Source: Candidatus Zixiibacteriota bacterium
GTDB lineage: Bacteria > Zixibacteria > MSB-5A5 > WJJR01
Reading direction: 5' to 3'
DNA: 51,340 nucleotides
Assembly: GCA_016199865.1 (NCBI GenBank)
Contig: JACQFV010000067.1
Coordinates: forward strand, 1-51,340
Under the pieces are notes generated by a model. It did no database searches and was not told where the DNA came from. It worked only from the letters and a program-made list of their open reading frames with translations. Numbering within the stretch: position 1 is the first letter of the stretch; every line of letters begins with the position of its first letter. Below, piece after piece: positions 23,051 through 31,203 of the stretch. Position numbers and translations under genes: made by a program.

Positions 23051-26000
23051 TTACTTCAACAGCGTCATCTTGCGGGTCGCCGTGAAATCAGCGGCCTGGA
23101 CACGGTAGAAGTAGACACCTGACGCCACATGCGTTCCGGCGTTGTCAGTGCCATCCCACGCGACTTGAGCGCGTCCGGCATCATGACCCGCAAAGGTCCG
23201 CACTGTCTGGCCGGCGATGTTGTAAATCGCCAGCGACCAATCCGTCTCCTGCTTCAAGTTGAAGGCGATAACCGTCCCCGCGTTGAACGGATTCGGATAG
23301 TTCTGCAACAGCGCATACTCCGTGGGCACAGCCGACTTGGCCGCGCTCGAGGACAGAAGGGCGCCGGAGGCATCCGACATTTGCACGTCGGCCAATTCGA
23401 TCGCGCCATCACCGGTCGTCGGGATGGTCAGGATCTCGTTGGCGCCGGCATTGACCCGGGCGCCTTTGTCCCAAGCATAGACCAACACGCGCAGTTCACC
23501 GTTCTCCGCATGGGACGCCATCCGCAAATTGGCGGCGGCCGGCGAGAGAACCGGTGTCCCGACGCCCATTCCAGAGTACCGGAAGACCAACAAGGCGCCG
23601 CCGAGCTCGACCGAGGAATTGGTCTGCACGTGGACGGTGTTGTTTTCAACCCGCATGTTCGCCGTGCCGCTGTTCAGGTAGGGCGACATCTTCGGATTGC
23701 CCGGATCGTTCGGGAAGGGCTGCGCGTCGCCGGTGATGACCCGGATCAGATAGATCAGGTCGGCCACCGTCAGCGGCACGCCGTCGTCGTTGACGTCGGA
23801 CGCGAGAATCTGGGACTCCCGATATCCACCCTGCGACTGCGGCAGCGTGAAGACGTCGGGACCATAGATGAAGTAGTTCGTGAACAACACCGCGTCACCG
23901 ACTTCGTTGGCGATGTTGTTCAGGTTGATGTCGCCGCGATCGTCATGCGGCGGAATGACGCAGATCCAGCCGTCGCACAGCGAGATGATGTCCCGGGCCA
24001 CGTGCTTGCGCGGGTCGATGCACGACTGATCCGAGCCGATCGGGATGAACAACGTGTCACCCGTCACGGAGGACAGCGTGTTGTCGCCGCAATCCAGCGT
24101 GCAGAAGGCCACGCGGAAACACTGGCCGATGAAGTTACGATCGCTGGAGACCAGGAACTTCAGCGCGATGATCTTGCCGTCCAGGTGGAAGTCCGCCGGC
24201 GCCGGGTGGATCGTTGAGCCATTGTTCAAGTCGGCAATGGCCACAACCCGGAGGTAGCCGGAGGGGCAGCCGCCCGTGCAGTTCGAATTGGCGCTGAACC
24301 GCCAGGTGAAGTATTCCCACTTCTTCAGGTTCCCCTCCGCGGTCGCGCCGAGGAAGGACATCCCGGACTTGTCGTAGCACAGAAGCAGGTCCAAACCACC
24401 CAACGGATAGCTGTTGCTAACCTTGACCCAGATCGTCGCCGTCTGGCCGCTCAGTACTTCCACGATGCTGTCGGTGCCAACTTCGTCGCCGACGCACAGC
24501 TTGTAGGACAGAACGGTGATGTCAAAGCAGCAGGTGTCCTTCTGTCCGCACTCGTCCGACCCGATGACGCAGGCGGTCCATACACCAGCATCGCACTCAT
24601 TCGCGGCAGAAGTCTGCCATGAGAAGTGGCCGGAATCATCGACCGTCGGAGCGTTGTCCGGACCGCAGGCCTGATGGCTGTCGGCGGTCTTGACAAAGCT
24701 CAACAGCGAGTAGTGGATCTTCCCGCCGTCGGCGTCTGTCCCGGTTGCCGTCCCCTTGATCAAGTCACCCAACAGTGCCAAAGGTATGGTCGGGCAGGTG
24801 ATCACGGGGGCCGGATTGACCACGGTCACGGTGAAGCAGCAGGTGTCGGCCTTTTCGCAGTCGAACACCCGCACGCAGATCGTGATCGGACCCTTGCCGA
24901 AATCGGCGCAATCCGGGTCAAACGTCAAGGTGCTGCCGCTGATCGTCGGGGCGTTTTGCGGCGCGGGAACGGCCGAAATCACCGTCCACGTCAACGGGCA
25001 CTTGCAATTGTCGTCCGTCGCGACCAGAGGCACGTTCGCATTCGCTGCATTCCAGTTGATCGTGATGTTGGCCGGATTGGTGCACACCGGCGCATTCTGG
25101 AACACGGTCACGTTGAACGTGCAGAGGACCGAATCGCAACCGTCGGAGGCGTAGAAAGAGATGACGTGTGTGCCGACGTCGGCGCACGTCGTGGCCCAGT
25201 TGTACACTCCGGCGGAAGTCACCGTGCCCGGCGATCCCGCAGCCAGTGAATAGCTGAACGGATTGCCGTCGGCATCGCTCGCATTCAACTGCTTGCCAAC
25301 CACTCCGGTCTGGAAATACACGGTCACGTCCGCGTTGGTGCCGCAAACCGGCGCGGTGTTGGTCACGGTCACAGTGAAGGTGCACTGAACCGACGCGCCG
25401 CACTGATCGGTGGCCCGGAAGGTCACCGTGTGTACGCCTTTGTCCTGGCAGGACGCGCAGTAGTTGAACTTTCCATCCAGGGAAACGGTCGCGCCATGCA
25501 GACCACCCGCGTTGGCCAGGGAATACGCCAACGGGTTGTCGCAGACGTCAGGATCCGAGGCGTTCAACTGCTTGTTCACGACGCACGCGGTGAAGTTACG
25601 TGATTCGTTGCTGTTCTGGCCACAAACCGGCGGTTTGTTTTCCAGCGGAAGCGTGCTTTTGAACCACTCGATGGTGTCCTTGCATGCACCGCAGTCGAAA
25701 GAGATGTATGCACCCGCTGGCGGGAAAAAGGCCGTGTCAATGACGATATCGCCTTGGCAAGTACTGGGGGTTTGGATCGTCAAGATCCAGAGAGCGGGAT
25801 AATTGCCTGGGGGCAGGCAACACCCGCTGAAATTCACAACACCCGTCGTCCCCGGAAAACCGCCCACGCCGGTCAAACAACCGGCCAGAGCAGCCGTCGG
25901 AGTCGCCGACAGAATCGTCGCTCCTCCGGAAATGGTCAGGGGTAAGCCCCAACCACCGATGGAACTCGTGGTGTTGAGAAAGATCGGCACCTGAATGGTC

Positions 26001-26134
26001 GCGCAGCGGGGTATCCCCTGGTTCTGCTGACCGTTCGGGTGACCGAGACCACCAGAATTGCTGGCAAAGGCGACACCGGATGAGAGAAGCAGGGCCAGAC
26101 CTACGCAGGCCAGTACTGTCAGTTTATGCTTCAT
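23051..26134 (-). CDS. 1027-aa secreted protein: signal peptide, about 4 Cys-rich Ig-like modules, cohesin-like module, dockerin-like module, T9SS C-terminal sorting domain
   Basis: Signal peptide 'MKHKLTVLACVGLALLLSSGVAFA'. Modules end in '..TFTVTVTNTAPVC', '..TFNVTVFQNAPVC', '..CFTVTVVNPAPVI'. Cohesin-like 'ATIWVKVSNSYPLGGLDLLLCYDKSGMSFLGA'. Dockerin-like 'GDINLNNIANEVGDAVLFTNYFIYG..SDVNDDGVPLTVADLIYLIRVITGD'. CTD 'LLQNYPNPFNAGTVIAF..SGVYFYRVQAADFTATRKMTLLK'. Confidence 0.88.
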   Translation of the reverse strand: MKHKLTVLACVGLALLLSSGVAFASNSGGLGHPNGQQNQGIPRCATIQVPIFLNTTSSIGGWGLPLTISGGATILSATPTAALAGCLTGVGGFPGTTGVVNFSGCCLPPGNYPALWILTIQTPSTCQGDIVIDTAFFPPAGAYISFDCGACKDTIEWFKSTLPLENKPPVCGQNSNESRNFTACVVNKQLNASDPDVCDNPLAYSLANAGGLHGATVSLDGKFNYCASCQDKGVHTVTFRATDQCGASVQCTFTVTVTNTAPVCGTNADVTVYFQTGVVGKQLNASDADGNPFSYSLAAGSPGTVTSAGVYNWATTCADVGTHVISFYASDGCDSVLCTFNVTVFQNAPVCTNPANITINWNAANANVPLVATDDNCKCPLTWTVISAVPAPQNAPTISGSTLTFDPDCADFGKGPITICVRVFDCEKADTCCFTVTVVNPAPVITCPTIPLALLGDLIKGTATGTDADGGKIHYSLLSFVKTADSHQACGPDNAPTVDDSGHFSWQTSAANECDAGVWTACVIGSDECGQKDTCCFDITVLSYKLCVGDEVGTDSIVEVLSGQTATIWVKVSNSYPLGGLDLLLCYDKSGMSFLGATAEGNLKKWEYFTWRFSANSNCTGGCPSGYLRVVAIADLNNGSTIHPAPADFHLDGKIIALKFLVSSDRNFIGQCFRVAFCTLDCGDNTLSSVTGDTLFIPIGSDQSCIDPRKHVARDIISLCDGWICVIPPHDDRGDINLNNIANEVGDAVLFTNYFIYGPDVFTLPQSQGGYRESQILASDVNDDGVPLTVADLIYLIRVITGDAQPFPNDPGNPKMSPYLNSGTANMRVENNTVHVQTNSSVELGGALLVFRYSGMGVGTPVLSPAAANLRMASHAENGELRVLVYAWDKGARVNAGANEILTIPTTGDGAIELADVQMSDASGALLSSSAAKSAVPTEYALLQNYPNPFNAGTVIAFNLKQETDWSLAIYNIAGQTVRTFAGHDAGRAQVAWDGTDNAGTHVASGVYFYRVQAADFTATRKMTLLK

Positions 26135-26534
26135 TCTCCTTTGCTCCTTTACGTTGTCACACTTGCAACGATGTCAGCACCAATGCTGACTTGATTTGCG
26201 TCCGCCATTCTTATTGCCTGGCGATCATGTCGCCGGTCGGCAACTGATGACGACGCAAAGAGTTAACGTACTACAGATGGAATTCTATCGGCAAAGGAAA
26301 TCCAAGACGCAGGACACCCTACGGTTTTTAGAATCTCTCTCGACTCCAACCCGAAGGCGTTCGATATTGCGGCACAACTTGTTAAGCAGTCAACAAACTG
26401 CTCAGCACGTGATAGTAGTTTACGTCCTTTTTTCAGATTGTCAAGAAAAAACAGAAGTTTTTTTCGAGGCGGAGTAGCCGGGCGAGTTCTCAATGGCCTG
26501 CCTTGGCCATCCAAATGGTGACGTGAATGTGCCG

Positions 26535-26593
26535 GTCAGCCCTTGGGCTGACGGCGAACGGGATCGTAGGAGGGTCAGCCCAAGGGCTGACCC
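26535..26593. repeat. Two copies of palindrome gtcagccc-(tt/aa)-gggctgac, 20 bp apart
   Basis: The copies are at 26535-26552 and 26572-26593. They lie just downstream of the minus-strand cysteine-synthase-family gene and are likely REP/terminator-like. Confidence 0.8.
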
Positions 26594-26635
26594 TCACGGT
26601 AGCGTCATCAGGTTATCGGGCCTCAGCAGTCGTTC

Positions 26636-27640
26636 TCAGAGACCTATCTTCGCCATCCAGTCATTGCTCAGGAATTTCGAGACATACCTCATGCCGCTGT
26701 CAGGGAGCACGGTCACAATATTGAGTGCCGGATTGCCCGCCTCCCGCTTGAGCCATCTTTCGATTCCCGCGATGGCGGACCCCGAAGACCCGCCCGTGAT
26801 CATGCCCTCTTCGATAACAAGTTGCCGCGCGGATGCAAATGACTCTCTATCATCGACTTGCACAATTTCTTCGATGACTGTCATGTCAAGAGCCCCACAG
26901 GGAGTATCGGAGCCGAGTCCTTCCACCAAGTAGCGGCCCGGGTCTTGTAGTTCATTGAACTTGAACAAATTATGGAAGACTGACCCAACCGGATCGATGG
27001 CGATGACGCGAATGTCCGGTTTCTTGCTCTTCAGAAAACGGGCTACACCGGAGAGGGTACCGCCCGTGCCTATTCCGGCCACGAATACATCGATCTTGCC
27101 ATCCGTCTGCTCCCAAATCTCCGGGCCGGTGGTCGCAAAGTGGCTCTCGATATTCAGTGGATTGTGATACTGGTCAATGAGATACCCGCCCCGTTCACGG
27201 GCCAGCCGTCGCGCCGATTCGTAATAGGACCGGGGATCGTCATGTGGGACATCGGTTGGGCAGACAACGACTTCGGCCCCAAGGGCTTTGATCAAATCGA
27301 TCTTCTCTTGTGATGTCTTGTCCGGCACGGTGAACAAAGAGCGATACCCCTTGACCGTAGCCACCATCGCGACGGAGATGGCGGTATTCCCCGACGAATT
27401 GTCGATCAGCAGATCGCCCGGCTTGATCCACCCCGACCGTTCCGCCGCCTCGATGATGTACAATGCCATCCGGTCTTTCACCGAACCCGAGGGGTTCAGG
27501 AATTCCAGTTTGGCTTGGATGTTGTGACCTAGACGATCGCTCAAACGCCGCAGGCGAACCAAGGGGGTGTTCCCGATTAGAGACAGAACCCCTTCTCGGA
27601 GCGGGTGCTTGGGAACGGTCGCACTTGGATGGGTCAACAC
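26636..27640 (-). CDS. PLP-dependent cysteine synthase / cystathionine beta-synthase family enzyme
   Basis: 'GNTPLVRL', 'KLEFLNPSGSVKDRMALYII' (PLP lysine motif), 'NSSGNTAISVAMVA', 'GIGTGGTLSGV', 'GGSSGSA'. Confidence 0.88.
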   Translation of the reverse strand: MLTHPSATVPKHPLREGVLSLIGNTPLVRLRRLSDRLGHNIQAKLEFLNPSGSVKDRMALYIIEAAERSGWIKPGDLLIDNSSGNTAISVAMVATVKGYRSLFTVPDKTSQEKIDLIKALGAEVVVCPTDVPHDDPRSYYESARRLARERGGYLIDQYHNPLNIESHFATTGPEIWEQTDGKIDVFVAGIGTGGTLSGVARFLKSKKPDIRVIAIDPVGSVFHNLFKFNELQDPGRYLVEGLGSDTPCGALDMTVIEEIVQVDDRESFASARQLVIEEGMITGGSSGSAIAGIERWLKREAGNPALNIVTVLPDSGMRYVSKFLSNDWMAKIGL

Positions 27641-27727
27641 TGCCGTATCGATTTGTCGTTCAAGGGATTGGAGCGACTTATAGGATCACAGATGTCGGTA
27701 TTGATGGCTGCCACTTCCGCCGGACCC

Positions 27728-29182
27728 TCAGATGATCCTGAAGTAATCGACCAGGGTGCAGCGCCGCGGCCGGGTGAATGTCGAAGCCCGGGTTAAACCC
27801 TCACCCGTGGTCCCGGCGATCGACATGGTCGTGAAGCCCTCGCCGCCATATCCCAAGCCAGCCAAATTGGCGCCGTTCTTGACGAAGATGTTGCCGTTGC
27901 AGCGTTGCGCCATCGCCGACATGTTGGCCACGTTCGTGGAATGCATGACAAATGTGTGCTGGAAGTCATGTTCGGCAATGATCGCCCAGTCCATCGCCTG
28001 TTCGAATGACCGGCAGCGGACCAAGGGGATGATCGGCATCAGTTGCTCGGCCATCACCAACGGATGATCCCAGCCAACCTCCATGATGCCGATACATGAG
28101 CCCGACGGCGGCTTGATGTTTATCTCCTGAAGTATCACTTCCAAGTTCTTGCCGACAAAGCGCTTGTGCAAGCGCAGGTGGCGGTGTCCCTTGCCGATTT
28201 TATCTTCCTCGACCAGAAGACGGGTCAGGCGATCCACATCGTTCCCTGTAATCTCATAGGCGCCGCTCGCCACCATCTCACGCTTCAACTGGCTCGCCAC
28301 TTTATCGACAACGAAGATCTCCTTCTCGTCGGTGCAAAGGATGTTGTTGTCGAACCCGCATCCGGTCACCAAATCCTTGGCCGCCTTGGGGATAATCGCG
28401 GTTTCATCCACTATCGCCGGCGGATTCCCCGGTCCGGCACAAATCGCGCGATTTCCTGATGTCATCGCCAGTCGTACAACGGGCATACCGCCCGTGACCA
28501 AGACGAGATCAATCTTCCGATGCTTCATCAGTGCCGCGGCTGACTCCTGAGTCGGCTCGGCGAGTATCGTGATCAGATTCTCCGGCCCGCCCGCAGCGAC
28601 AATTGCGTCATTGATTGCCATCGCCGCCGCCCGGCAGACATTCTTGGCGGCTGGGTGGGAGTTGAAAACGCAGCCGTTCCCGGCAGAGATGAGCGAAATC
28701 GAATTGTTGATCACCGTGGCGGTGGGATTGGTCGATGGGGTGATCACGCCAACCACCCCGAATGGCGCCAACTCTACGAGCGTCAGACCGTGATCGCCGG
28801 TGAACGACTCCGGTCGAAGATCCTCCGGTCCGGGAGTCTGGCGCGCTGAGAGGAGGTTTTTCTTCGTTTTGTCACCGACCCGCCCCATCCCGGTCTCGGA
28901 CTGCGCCATTTTGGCCCAGATTTCCGATGACGCCACGGAAACCTGCCTGATCCGCTCGATAATTTCAAATCGCTTGGACAGACCAAGATCGAGAAGCGAG
29001 CGTCGCGCACGGTGTGCCGCCTCAATCGCCTGATCGAGATCGGCGAAGACACACTTGCCTTCCCCGGAACGAGCGGCCGCTGTCAAGCCCGTCGCCGCTG
29101 GTGACTTAGCCGAGCCGGGTTCGCCGAGTTCATGGAGCACACGCCCGACAATGTCGGCTATCTCACTGTCAGGCAGAGGCAT
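27728..29182 (-). CDS. CoA-acylating aldehyde dehydrogenase (EutE/PduP family) with N-terminal encapsulation-peptide-like helix
   Basis: 'ITPSTNPTATVINN', 'VTGGMPVV', 'AGPGNPPAIVDETA', and 'DNNILCTDEKE' (catalytic Cys context of EutE/PduP). N-terminal 'SEIADIVGRVLHEL' followed by a Gly/Pro/Ala linker. Confidence 0.85.
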   Translation of the reverse strand: MPLPDSEIADIVGRVLHELGEPGSAKSPAATGLTAAARSGEGKCVFADLDQAIEAAHRARRSLLDLGLSKRFEIIERIRQVSVASSEIWAKMAQSETGMGRVGDKTKKNLLSARQTPGPEDLRPESFTGDHGLTLVELAPFGVVGVITPSTNPTATVINNSISLISAGNGCVFNSHPAAKNVCRAAAMAINDAIVAAGGPENLITILAEPTQESAAALMKHRKIDLVLVTGGMPVVRLAMTSGNRAICAGPGNPPAIVDETAIIPKAAKDLVTGCGFDNNILCTDEKEIFVVDKVASQLKREMVASGAYEITGNDVDRLTRLLVEEDKIGKGHRHLRLHKRFVGKNLEVILQEINIKPPSGSCIGIMEVGWDHPLVMAEQLMPIIPLVRCRSFEQAMDWAIIAEHDFQHTFVMHSTNVANMSAMAQRCNGNIFVKNGANLAGLGYGGEGFTTMSIAGTTGEGLTRASTFTRPRRCTLVDYFRII

Positions 29183-29350
29183 AGGATAGGGTTCTGCGGT
29201 TGAGAGTTAGAGTGGATTGGTAGACCGACGAAGCTCGGCGTTCATACTCCAAGAAACACAACCGCCGTGGCTCTCCGCACGACCCTCCAGGGCGCAAAGC
29301 ACGGCGGCTGGTAATTCCAGACGTTGAATCCCCCATAGGGGAGTGCAGGG

Positions 29351-29644
29351 CTATTTCCCCGGAACTTCTCCCGGCAGACGGGTCGGGAAAATGTCGTGGA
29401 CATTATTGTGTGGACGCGGGATCACGTGCACAGCCACCAATTCGCCGACTTTCTGCGCCGCAGCCGCGCCAGCGTCGGTCGCTGCCTTGCATGCTGCCAC
29501 GTCGCCGCGCACCAGCACCGTAACCAATCCGCCGCCGATCTTTTCATATCCCACCAGTGTCACTTTGGCGGCTTTCACCATCGCGTCGGCCGCCTCGATC
29601 AGCGCCACCAACCCTTTGGTTTCGATCATACCCAATGCTTCCAT
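29351..29644 (-). CDS. Bacterial microcompartment hexameric shell protein (BMC-H, PduA/EutM-like)
   Basis: 97 aa from the ATG at 29644 (GGAGG upstream). '[71 protein letters not shown]' is near-collinear with PduA. Confidence 0.92.
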
Positions 29645-29883
29645 AAGTTGGCCTCCGGCCGCGACTTGCAGCAGTCCTGTCCGATTACTGCCGCGACATC
29701 CGGTCGCGGCACGGGTCAATGGTAGGCGGGGTCGGTAATACTGTCAACAGGAAATCTTGATTCTTGGAGCGAAGCAGCCATGTGACCTGAGTTTTCGCGC
29801 CACTGTCGAGGGCGTCAGGCGCCATTTGCAATTTGGCACGGCCTCAAATGATTGGTATAATCGTCAAGAGGGGCTTCCGAACG

Positions 29884-31203
29884 ATGGCCAAAACATTGCG
29901 GACATTGGTGATCGGCGGCGGGGGGCGGGAACACGCCATCTGCTGGGCGTTACGACAATCCCCGCAGATCGAAGCTCTCTATTGTGCACCGGGCAATGCC
30001 GGCATCGCCGAATTGGCCACCATCGTAGAGCTGCCCGACCACGACCTGCGCGGTCTGGTCGATTTCGCGCGTAAAGAACGGATTGATCTGACCGTTGTCG
30101 GCCCGGAACGGCCCCTCGCCGAGGGAATTGTCGACGAGTTTGCCCGGGAAAAGCTCCGCGTGTTCGGTCCCACGGCCTCGGCCGCCCGCTTGGAATCATC
30201 GAAAGTCTTCGCCAAGGAATTCATGCGGCGCCACTACATCCCGACGACGCCCTATCGCGCCTTTGACCGCAGCGATGAAGCCCTGAAGTTCGTGGCCGAA
30301 TCCTCAGGACCACTGGTCGTCAAAGCCGATGGCCTGGCGGCCGGCAAAGGGGTCATTGTCTGCCGGAATTCCGACGAAGCCCACCTGGCCGTCAAGAAGA
30401 TCATGGTCGAACGCGCGTTCGGTTCGGCCGGAGAACGGATTATCGTCGAACGGCTCCTGATCGGCGAAGAAATGAGCGTCATGGCGTTCGCCGACGGGAC
30501 GCACGTCGTTCCCATGATCCCGGCGCGTGACTATAAGCGTGCTCAGGACGGTGATGAGGGGCCGAACACCGGCGGAATGGGCGCCTATGCCCCGGCGCGC
30601 TCCATGGAAGATGATCTGTTTCAGGAAATCTACGACCACATTCTGGAACCGGCCGTCCGCGGCATGAAGACGGAGGGGTCACCATTCGTCGGTATTCTTT
30701 ACGCCGGGCTGATGCTGACCGACGTTGGGCCGCGCGTGTTGGAGTTCAACGTTCGCTTTGGGGATCCCGAAACCCAGGTTGTGCTTCCATTGCTGAAGAC
30801 CGACTTGGTCAACGTCATCGGTGCTGCGCTCGCGGGCCAACTCGATTGGGAGCCCCTCTCTTGGCGGGAGGATGTTTGCGCCGGCGTGATTCTGACCGCG
30901 CGTGGCTATCCTGGCCGTTATGAAGGGGGCGTACCGATAGAAGGGGAGGTCCGCACGATGAACAATGGCGTCTTCTGCTTTCACGCGGGAACAGCGCGGG
31001 ACGGAGCCGGTGGGCTGGCCTCCTCGGGCGGGCGGATTCTCGGCCTATTTGCCCGCTCCGCCACACACGAGGGTGCGGTCGCAGCGGCCTACGCCGCGGT
31101 GGAACGGGTCCGCATCAAGGGGGCGCAGTATCGCACCGACATCGGATTGCGCGTGCGACGTGTCGTCAGGCAACGCCGGGAGGGCGTGGCCCGCATCACG
31201 TAA
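29884..31203 (+). CDS. purD: Phosphoribosylamine--glycine ligase
   Basis: 'LVIGGGGREHAICWAL', 'APGNAG', 'LVVKADGLAAGKGV', 'GPNTGGMGAY', 'LYAGLMLT..GPRVLEFNVRFGDPE'. Confidence 0.95.
   Translation: MAKTLRTLVIGGGGREHAICWALRQSPQIEALYCAPGNAGIAELATIVELPDHDLRGLVDFARKERIDLTVVGPERPLAEGIVDEFAREKLRVFGPTASAARLESSKVFAKEFMRRHYIPTTPYRAFDRSDEALKFVAESSGPLVVKADGLAAGKGVIVCRNSDEAHLAVKKIMVERAFGSAGERIIVERLLIGEEMSVMAFADGTHVVPMIPARDYKRAQDGDEGPNTGGMGAYAPARSMEDDLFQEIYDHILEPAVRGMKTEGSPFVGILYAGLMLTDVGPRVLEFNVRFGDPETQVVLPLLKTDLVNVIGAALAGQLDWEPLSWREDVCAGVILTARGYPGRYEGGVPIEGEVRTMNNGVFCFHAGTARDGAGGLASSGGRILGLFARSATHEGAVAAAYAAVERVRIKGAQYRTDIGLRVRRVVRQRREGVARIT

Follow-up and report, generated by a model that had tools for sequence, protein, structure and literature searches.

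A BMC-H shell-protein gene (BMC-H1) and the adjoining gene of a CoA-acylating aldehyde dehydrogenase (AldDH) form a satellite locus of a dispersed microcompartment of the FRAG class in a Candidatus Zixiibacteriota bacterium. The pair is probably the aldehyde-oxidising module of a dispersed metabolosome, whose likely route leads from deoxyribose-5-phosphate through acetaldehyde to acetyl-CoA. The window analysed here is a stretch of 51,340 nucleotides (contig JACQFV010000067.1), and the genome to which it belongs is a Zixibacteria metagenome-assembled genome (MAG) that is 94% complete.

The gene pair and its products

Both genes of the pair lie on the minus strand with intact open reading frames (ORFs), and the AldDH gene is found downstream of BMC-H1 after a gap of 168 nt. 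The features in and around the pair are as follows.

29719-29747, minus strand: candidate promoter of the sigma-70 type, with TTGACA and TACCAT separated by 17 nt, some 75 nt before the start of BMC-H1
29351-29644, minus strand: BMC-H1, 97 aa, single-domain hexamer-type shell protein of the EutM/PduA/HO BMC-H type
29260-29309, minus strand: conserved RNA hairpin between BMC-H1 and AldDH, with the invariant apical core GGAGGGTCGTGC
27728-29182, minus strand: CoA-acylating AldDH of the EutE/PduP family, 484 aa
29123-29170, minus strand: encapsulation-peptide (EP) helix, AldDH residues 5-20
29051-29122, minus strand: Gly/Pro/Ala/Ser-rich linker, AldDH residues 21-44
26636-27640, minus strand: cysteine-synthase/CBS-family PLP enzyme (PF00291), a neighbour outside the organelle gene set

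The promoter candidate agrees with the consensus at 10 of 12 positions in a consensus scan, which is a match to the consensus alone. Whole-genome profile searches give no further PF00936, PF03319 or PF06130 match on the contig of the window. The flanking ORFs that were scanned, a set that does not include all of the window's four longest ORFs, encode housekeeping functions (purD, purE, RtcB, glycogen genes, GreA, and T9SS proteins).

BMC-H1 covers the entire PF00936 profile (positions 1-75 of 75, E 3.6e-30) and scores 156.6 bits against the EutM equivalog of NCBIfam, where the cut-off is 133. Its PDB matches are EutM (E 7e-42), PduA, and the HO BMC-H (HO-5815). When aligned with the last of these (6ner), the segments of the hexamer edge and pore are kept, including the lysine of the AMVKAAKV segment. 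The VIPRPH motif is conserved, and the pore loop reads KIGGGL in BMC-H1 and KTGGGY in 6ner. Its predicted hexamers would form the facets of the shell. Across Zixibacteria, BMC-H1 is 85-96% identical and AldDH always adjoins it.

AldDH scores 586 bits against NCBIfam NF011927 (cut-off 403), also matches PF00171, and shares 48% identity with E. coli EutE. In the PDB it is matched best by acylating AldDHs of microcompartments (5jfl, E 5e-116). Cys283, part of the motif NNILCTDEKE, does not vary among 34 sequences and aligns with ...NNLPCVAEKE... of 5jfl. In an AlphaFold2 model built from a 34-sequence alignment, residues 5-20 form a helix and the catalytic core begins around residue 45. Between them lies the linker, with pLDDT below 50 at residues 19-33 and 35-40, which differs in both length and sequence among orthologues. 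The helix has a hydrophobic face made of I8, I11, V12, V15, L16, and L19, and the helical hydrophobic moment at residues 6-21 (0.66; shuffle frequency 0.0004) is the maximum of the whole protein.

This N-terminus aligns to the N-terminal peptide of 5jfl. The EP motif is present in AldDH and in all 31 further shell-locus AldDHs whose N-termini were read, and the extension is missing in two non-microcompartment homologues (from Vibrio and Oscillospiraceae) that have no shell genes within 6 kb. Searched with an EP-helix profile, the 50,937 N-termini of the genome's ORFs gave only AldDH and an ACT-domain protein described below, both of which belonged to the training set of the profile; the next best score, 11.6 bits among these N-termini and 9,587 C-termini, is noise. 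The amphipathic peptide would draw the enzyme into the shell lumen, where AldDH would convert aldehyde, CoA, and NAD+ to acyl-CoA and NADH.

The original prediction had described a 97-aa shell protein nearly collinear with PduA/EutM and, 168 bp downstream on the same strand, an EutE/PduP-family AldDH with an amphipathic-helix-like N-terminus and a linker. The profile and PDB matches and the ORF coordinates bear this out, the residue strings quoted for the N-terminus are exact, and the check proposed for it, that the segment be helical and amphipathic, came out in its favour by both the AlphaFold2 model and the hydrophobic moment. The absence of BMC-P, BMC-T, and PduL genes near the pair, which had also been predicted, agrees with the profile searches of the contig.

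Shell genes dispersed in the genome and across the phylum

PF00936 and PF03319 searches of the genome give two BMC-H and five BMC-P genes, which occupy four loci. Apart from the pair, the loci are as follows.

Contigs C179 and C16, which overlap and are joined as one locus: prmC, BMC-H2 (extended at its C-terminus), BMC-P, an ACT protein whose N-terminus is EP-like (EP-ACT), and DUF711
Contig C89, 23672-24689: BMC-P triplet, three tandem PF03319 genes
Contig C21: deoB, cdd, BMC-P, and DERA

[quoted passage not shown] The pair is on a different contig from BMC-H2 and BMC-P of the main locus (C179/C16). In a genome of the same genus that is assembled in two contigs (G001), the same pieces are separated by 53-63 kb or lie on the other contig. 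Since G001 shows the same dispersal, the scattering is not an assembly artefact, and the FRAG assignment is made on this ground. In another genome, of four contigs, the pair is on one contig and the main locus on another (G037, C3 and C1).

Some of what was predicted from the window has to be revised at the scale of the genome. The genome-wide search for shell genes that had been proposed finds one more BMC-H, five BMC-P genes, and three further loci, so that the pair is not the orphan it was called, and the suggested satellite reading is right, but without a large main cluster. A single BMC-H was said to be unable to close a shell. While no BMC-P gene is in the window, a closed shell is possible because such genes exist elsewhere in the genome.

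Among 61 Zixibacteria genomes, the AldDH orthologue is found in 19 of 20 with BMC-P and in none of 41 without it, as raw counts in which shared ancestry is ignored. Its gene and the BMC-P locus are apart in every one of those genomes but G025, which has a compact locus. Synteny maps across the genomes were based on tblastn. In other families a WYL regulator and a QueT transporter are encoded 5' of the pair; this genome has a homologue of neither.

In a tree with homologues from outside microcompartment loci as the outgroup, 16 AldDHs of Zixibacteria pairs form a single clade (support 100/100). Its sister, with weak support (84/66), consists of 16 AldDHs from compact, SPU-like loci of six phyla, in which the gene order is RpiB-DERA-BMC-H-BMC-P-AldDH-BMC-P-BMC-P. 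A 17th compact-locus AldDH, from Myxococcales, branches below both groups. The phylogenetic placement that had been suggested as a check thus groups the enzyme with shell-locus AldDHs, apart from the two non-BMC homologues.

The source of the aldehyde

The DERA on contig C21 is the sole DERA of the genome and passes the deoC equivalog. Its gene adjoins BMC-P and comes after deoB and cdd. The protein has an N-terminal extension of about 65 aa (residues 1-69 extra), in which residues 6-45 align to residues 2-46 of E. coli EutQ (E 8e-6), as they do in the G001 orthologue. This likeness is one of pairwise E-values, about 1e-5 to 1e-4. Pfam and PDB sequence searches give nothing for the extension, which gives a match only when compared directly with EutQ and EutT of E. 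coli, and a search against its own genome gives as the sole match a spurious 71-aa ORF on contig C58. In EutQ, the region of helices H1 and H2 binds the shell (PMC12487888).

From these parts the following route is proposed. [quoted passage not shown] It would be the chemistry of the SPU microcompartment run from a fragmented gene set, with all the scattered pieces presumably contributing to one organelle. Neither PduL (PF06130) nor acetate kinase (PF00871) was found in the MAG, and a route of NAD+ and CoA recycling is presumed. No BMC-T was found, as both PF00936 matches of the genome are single-domain, and without a tandem-BMC gene the genome cannot have a PduS/PduT pair. RpiB, on contig C168, has unrelated genes around it, no shell neighbours, and no EP-like N-terminus. 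Note that the DERAs of two other families (f7 and f9) have no N-terminal extension. These families keep the pair with a plain DERA only and a single BMC-P, so an encapsulated DERA is not needed by the pair in every lineage.

The genomes of these two families also give grounds for another source, although on balance an unlikely one: in the same dispersed organelle, the aldehyde would come from ACT/DUF711 or another enzyme, and DERA would be a family-specific add-on. Together with the pair, f7 and f9 have a sigma-54 activator, BMC-H2, BMC-P, PduS, PduT, EP-ACT, and DUF711. Of 61 Zixibacteria genomes, the 16 with EP-ACT are also the 16 with DUF711, and all of them have BMC-P. At its N-terminus the ACT protein has a helical hairpin and a linker, which are missing in its solved 91-aa homologue (1zpv), and a tag on the small subunit has parallels in EutC and PduD. 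DUF711 belongs to a ten-stranded barrel superfamily together with pyruvate formate-lyase and ribonucleotide reductase; no activity is known for it. Three species of the genus (G001, G002, and G005) have moreover lost ACT and DUF711 and keep the pair, the triplet, and BMC-P-DERA. In a second phylum (Bacteroidota/Ignavibacteria), genomes have the extended ACT protein with BMC-P, but such an AldDH is found in only 2 of 81. The extended ACT protein thus does without this AldDH, and its DUF711 partner presumably does so as well. As an observation in its own right, the presence of the extended protein follows that of BMC-P in both phyla.

The independent gain and loss of both modules across genomes, and the ACT module without AldDH in the second-phylum sample, could also mean that there are two organelles, one of BMC-H1, AldDH, the triplet, and BMC-P-DERA, and the other of BMC-H2, BMC-P, EP-ACT, and DUF711. 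This is improbable. The f7 and f9 genomes have one BMC-P gene for both BMC-H types, and BMC-H2 is retained in species without ACT/DUF711. In addition, the N-termini of AldDH and ACT in this genome share M1, P2, L3, D5, I8, I11, G13, V15, and L19, and these shared residues suggest a common docking partner.

It is very doubtful that the pair is a relic, or that BMC-H1 has a non-shell role (sheets or scaffold) beside a cytosolic AldDH. No main cluster lies nearby, and the searches for PduL and acetate kinase found no cofactor-recycling enzymes, as such a reading would have it. On the other side, the ORFs of the pair are intact in 19 genomes, BMC-H1 keeps its high identity, the catalytic residues are invariant, the genome has five BMC-P genes, and the pair is absent from all 41 sampled genomes without BMC-P.

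That AldDH shares a pathway with the cysteine-synthase/CBS-like PLP enzyme is hardly credible, even though the two genes share a strand, no terminator is predicted between them, and they adjoin each other in four genera of the family, since the adjacency is missing outside the family and the enzyme has no EP. It falls below the NCBIfam cut-offs for both CBS and CysK. As predicted, its gene is the next one downstream; the gap is 87 nt with the GTG start at 27640, and not 88 bp. In three genomes of the same family without organelle genes (G004, G008, and G011), the PLP gene is directly beside purD and the pair is absent. With these empty sites it is a backbone gene and was rejected as an organelle partner, and the caution of the original prediction in linking it to the pair was justified. 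Natural empty sites in close relatives can thus tell which neighbours belong to a locus.

The RNA hairpin between BMC-H1 and AldDH also occurs in relatives without the pair, where it precedes the cysteine-synthase-like gene by 111-162 nt, and it therefore belongs to the backbone. In an alignment of 12 genomes of the family, 12 of its 17 predicted pairs show compensatory changes, and in most copies a U-rich tract then follows. Rfam gives no credible match in 26000-30500. As a search for a shared regulatory motif, the exact 14-nt core was found once in this genome, and copies with one or two mismatches are not beside other shell genes.

Relation to known microcompartments and significance

The arrangement has shell genes at several genomic places and a BMC-P triplet in common with the FRAG class (PMC8217296). 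With individual FRAG types it shares a DeoC aldolase adjoining BMC-P (FRAG3; PMC8217296, Supplementary file 6), an ACT-domain protein with a unique N-terminus (FRAG4), and an AldDH with an N-terminal EP (FRAG7). No single catalogued type, however, unites all of the features found here. The one Zixibacteria genome of the catalogue is labelled 'fragmented (omitted)', and EP searches in FRAG genomes are given there as negative (PMC8217296), whereas here two proteins bear an EP and DERA has a EutQ-like tag.

SPU microcompartments (PMC8217296; Dwyer et al. 2024, PMC11585597) are similar in that a DERA with an N-terminal extension, which ordinary DERAs do not have, supplies the aldehyde, as it probably does here. 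They too have an acylating AldDH that bears its EP at the N-terminus and a BMC-P triplet, and the sister group of the AldDH clade comes from compact RpiB-DERA loci. Three features of SPU, namely an EP-bearing RpiB beside DERA (in most subtypes), at least one BMC-T, and one consolidated locus, are lacking in this genome, where the genes are scattered and RpiB is unlinked and without an EP. An N-terminal extension of DERA is found in both, but of different kinds, helix-plus-strands in the compact SPU loci and EutQ-like here. The co-location of deoB and cdd with DERA is a further difference.

The Eut and Pdu systems (EutM/EutE and PduA/PduP) share with the pair the EutM-equivalog shell protein, the acylating chemistry, and the layout of N-terminal EP and linker. 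They differ in that neither a signature enzyme for ethanolamine or propanediol, nor B12 genes, PduL, or EutD were found here, and there is no single operon. The AldDH satellite locus of acidobacterial ACI in the catalogue is likewise a two-gene set of BMC-H and AldDH. Its AldDH has a C-terminal EP or tail (PMC8217296), while the one here has an N-terminal EP and falls in an SPU-like clade.

The organelle chassis appears modular. The pair and BMC-H2 may, tentatively, be a constant chassis (BMC-H1, BMC-H2, and AldDH) that takes lineage-specific substrate modules, either a shell-tethered DERA with deoB and cdd or the widespread pair UPF0237 (ACT)/UPF0210 (DUF711), in which the helical hairpin of the small ACT subunit would serve for targeting. 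If this is true, DUF711 would count as a new cargo or signature enzyme of microcompartments, and the 'shell-only' FRAG organelles in Ignavibacteria and relatives would have in it a candidate for their missing content. There is no mention of DUF711 at least in the text of the supplementary files of the catalogue (PMC8217296).

Microcompartment gene sets of the fragmented kind are widespread among uncultured phyla, and their function was called enigmatic in the 2021 catalogue (PMC8217296). This genome adds a parts list, namely an EP-bearing AldDH, a sole DERA with a EutQ-like module by a vertex gene, and EP-ACT with DUF711. One fragmented type thereby gains a hypothesis, the salvage of DNA-derived deoxyribose with containment of acetaldehyde, and the phylum-wide pattern of presence and absence provides a functional lead for DUF711/UPF0210.

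Shell protein and aldehyde dehydrogenase pair

The pair lies on one strand of the window, with a structured element in its spacer:

27728-29182, minus strand: AldDH, a CoA-acylating aldehyde dehydrogenase (484 aa), 168 nt downstream of BMC-H1
29260-29309, minus strand: RNA hairpin in the 168-nt BMC-H1/AldDH spacer, invariant apical core GGAGGGTCGTGC
29351-29644, minus strand: BMC-H1, a full-length single-domain BMC-H (97 aa)

The original prediction of a BMC-H and AldDH pair with a 168-nt gap is borne out by the open reading frames and by profile searches. BMC-H1 matches PF00936 (E 3.6e-30) and scores 156.6 bits on the NCBIfam EutM equivalog (cut-off 133); its PDB relatives are EutM, PduA, and the Haliangium HO BMC-H. 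AldDH scores 586 bits on NF011927 (cut-off 403) and is 48% identical to E. coli EutE. Its closest solved structures are microcompartment AldDHs (5jfl, E 5e-116, PDB sequence search), and Cys283 does not vary across a 34-sequence alignment. The proposed encapsulation-peptide (EP)-like N-terminus and linker also held up. AlphaFold2, run with a 34-sequence alignment, predicts a helix at residues 5-20, pLDDT below 50 at 19-33 and 35-40, and the core from about residue 45. The peak hydrophobic moment of the whole protein is at residues 6-21 (equalled by 0.04% of shuffles), and the N-terminal peptide of 5jfl can be aligned to this segment (phmmer). The predicted N-terminus thus fits an EP. The other open reading frames scanned in the window are housekeeping genes. 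Taken alone, the pair is ordinary for a metabolosome.

Four genera of the taxonomic family of the source MAG (G000) retain the order purD, divergent BMC-H1-AldDH-PLP enzyme. In G004 (same genus), G008, and G011, which have neither BMC-P (the vertex protein, PF03319) nor AldDH, genes for DUF1573, RtcB, a T9SS protein, and the PLP enzyme directly adjoin purD, purE, and TPR genes. These empty sites imply that the cysteine-synthase-like PLP gene belongs to the backbone. The PLP enzyme was rejected as an organelle member because it is present beside purD where the pair is absent; the original prediction had rightly been unable to link the two. Outside the source family this order is not kept. There, a WYL-domain regulator (HTH_11-WYL-WCX) precedes the pair on the same strand, often with a QueT transporter as well (L034:4000-5533 and L043:4405-5541, loci of other Zixibacteria families). 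No homologue of either is found in G000.

The empty sites contain the hairpin as well, with 111-162 nt between it and the downstream PLP gene. Copies in relatives without the pair are as follows:

L081:7870-7971: hairpin copy
L082:7713-7814: hairpin copy
L083:3310-3411: hairpin copy

Most copies are followed by a U-rich tract, and 12 of the 17 predicted base pairs show compensatory changes among 12 genomes. G000 has a single exact copy of the 14-nt core, and an Rfam search gave no match for the hairpin. It is a structured element specific to the source family, and in G000 the pair straddles this backbone RNA element. Here the hairpin could lower read-through from BMC-H1 into AldDH.

Dispersed shell loci in Zixibacteria

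G000 is 2.24 Mb and 94% complete, and the window is its contig C98. Its whole-genome profile search yields two PF00936 and five PF03319 genes. A further BMC-H and five BMC-P genes thus exist at three other loci, supporting the earlier suggestion of a satellite locus:

C21 locus: phosphopentomutase, cytidine deaminase, BMC-P, DERA
C89 locus: three tandem BMC-P genes
Joined C179/C16 locus: prfA, prmC, BMC-H2, BMC-P, EP-ACT (an ACT-domain protein with an EP-like N-terminus, ~176 aa), DUF711/UPF0210 (454 aa; on the C16 side)

Contigs C179 (L010:3-497, minus) and C16 (L069:8687-10288, minus) overlap inside the ACT gene and so form a single locus. BMC-H2 has 190 aa with a C-terminal extension. The N-termini of AldDH and ACT have M1, P2, L3, D5, I8, I11, G13, V15, and L19 in common.

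The scattered layout is real and conserved. In G001 (same genus, two contigs), C1 carries the pair, while C2 carries the DERA locus, BMC-H2, and the triplet, separated by 53 and 63 kb. BMC-H2 of G001 is followed not by BMC-P, ACT, and DUF711 but by a 527-aa AdhE-type acylating acetaldehyde dehydrogenase (L025:9509-11092). Among 61 sampled Zixibacteria genomes, 20 have BMC-P; the AldDH orthologue is found in 19 of these and is absent from the remaining 41. It adjoins BMC-H1 (85-96% identity) at all loci examined, and is distant from the BMC-P locus in every carrier genome except G025. G025 belongs to the same class and carries a compact locus (L028, G025:C6:203000-222900) resembling that of the sugar-phosphate utilising (SPU) microcompartment, with an RpiB-DERA fusion. 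Its AldDH clusters with a Phycisphaerales sequence outside the Zixibacteria pair clade, which hints that the compact locus was acquired horizontally.

The ACT/DUF711 module

In genomes of f9, another Zixibacteria family keeping the pair, and in one MAG labelled Calditrichaeota, a locus contains genes for a sigma-54 activator, BMC-H2, BMC-P, PduS, PduT, EP-ACT, and DUF711. The f9 main locus is semi-compact (L071-L074), with a TPR-containing sigma-54 activator, a PduS-like flavoprotein, and a PduT-like BMC-T; these genomes have only one BMC-P gene each. The next gene after the locus in L071 and L072 belongs to the isocitrate/isopropylmalate-dehydrogenase family.

DUF711 matches 2ha9 (E 1e-155) and belongs, according to ECOD, to the ten-stranded barrel superfamily together with PFL and RNR. 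The 91-aa 1zpv covers residues 88-175 only of the ACT protein, whose extra N-terminus has predicted helices at 5-19 and 25-41, then a disordered linker. EP-ACT and DUF711 share one distribution in the Zixibacteria sample: both are confined to an identical set of 16 genomes out of 61, and each of these has BMC-P. A sample of 81 genomes from a second phylum (inferred to be Bacteroidota including Ignavibacteria) has extended ACT in 13 of 21 genomes with BMC-P and 0 of 60 without, often megabases from the shell genes; AldDH of the pair type is found in only two of the 81. The ACT/BMC-P association has Fisher P values, ignoring shared ancestry, of 2e-11 (Zixibacteria) and 5e-10 (second phylum). DUF711 is not mentioned in the supplementary text files of the microcompartment catalogue of Sutter et al. 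2021 (PMC8217296), and a literature search on DUF711/UPF0210 found no paper dealing with microcompartments.

Several public ACT annotations among proteins P0100-P0107 are 99-106 aa long, while the same DNA has an open frame of ~188 aa (e.g., G065:C1); automatic start calling cuts off the targeting extension. The same problem is known for SPU enzymes (Dwyer et al. 2024, PMC11585597). Large Ig-domain proteins (~1000 aa) with T9SS sorting tails follow both the pair (window 23051-26134, minus) and ACT/DUF711 (L069:4884-7844, minus), probably by coincidence.

Proposed chemistry and relation to known microcompartments

L009:4751-5611, minus strand: DERA, the sole one of G000, above the deoC equivalog cut-off

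The G000 DERA has ~65 additional N-terminal residues. Every SPU DERA has an N-terminal extension missing from ordinary DERAs (Dwyer et al. 2024, PMC11585597), but that of G000 is unlike those of compact SPU-locus DERAs. In pairwise comparison, its residues 6-45 match residues 2-46 of E. coli EutQ (36% identity, E 8e-6), as does the G001 orthologue; the E. coli EutT N-terminus is also alignable (E 5e-5). DERAs of f9 and f7 (a further family keeping the pair) have no extension. Residues 1-99 of Salmonella EutQ are enough to direct GFP into the organelle; the part of EutQ that binds the EutL/EutM interface is helices H1/H2 (PMC12487888). A sole DERA with an EutQ-like extension, together with these targeting data, suggests that the substrate route in G000 is likely from deoxyribose-5-P to acetyl-CoA. 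Deoxynucleosides would be converted to deoxyribose-5-P by a putative nucleoside phosphorylase and DeoB. DERA, tethered to the shell, would cleave it to glyceraldehyde-3-P and acetaldehyde, and AldDH would convert acetaldehyde to acetyl-CoA. RpiB is unlinked to shell genes and lacks an EP; a genome search of the 94%-complete MAG gave no match for PduL or acetate kinase.

The 16 Zixibacteria pair AldDHs form a single clade (100/100, maximum-likelihood tree). Its sister, with weak support (84/66), consists of 16 AldDHs from Chloroflexota, Gemmatimonadota, Fidelibacterota, Planctomycetota, Myxococcota, and Acidobacteriota, encoded in compact loci (RpiB-DERA-BMC-H-BMC-P-AldDH-BMC-P-BMC-P) whose gene content is that of SPU loci. 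A 17th compact-locus AldDH (Myxococcales) branches below both groups.

The catalogue defines satellite loci and a fragmented (FRAG) class, whose sets occupy up to six genomic places, have a BMC-P triplet, and are termed enigmatic in function (PMC8217296). According to its supplement, DeoC adjoins BMC-P in FRAG3, which also has a C-terminally extended BMC-H; the ACT protein of FRAG4 has a unique N-terminus, and the AldDH of FRAG7 bears an N-terminal EP; the sole Zixibacteria genome there is 'fragmented (omitted)' (PMC8217296). The G000 set unites these separate features. It is therefore a variant of the known fragmented class, not catalogued before in this combination, for which SPU-like chemistry is the best-supported function. 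It is of interest for its modular, scattered architecture and for the ACT/DUF711 lead.
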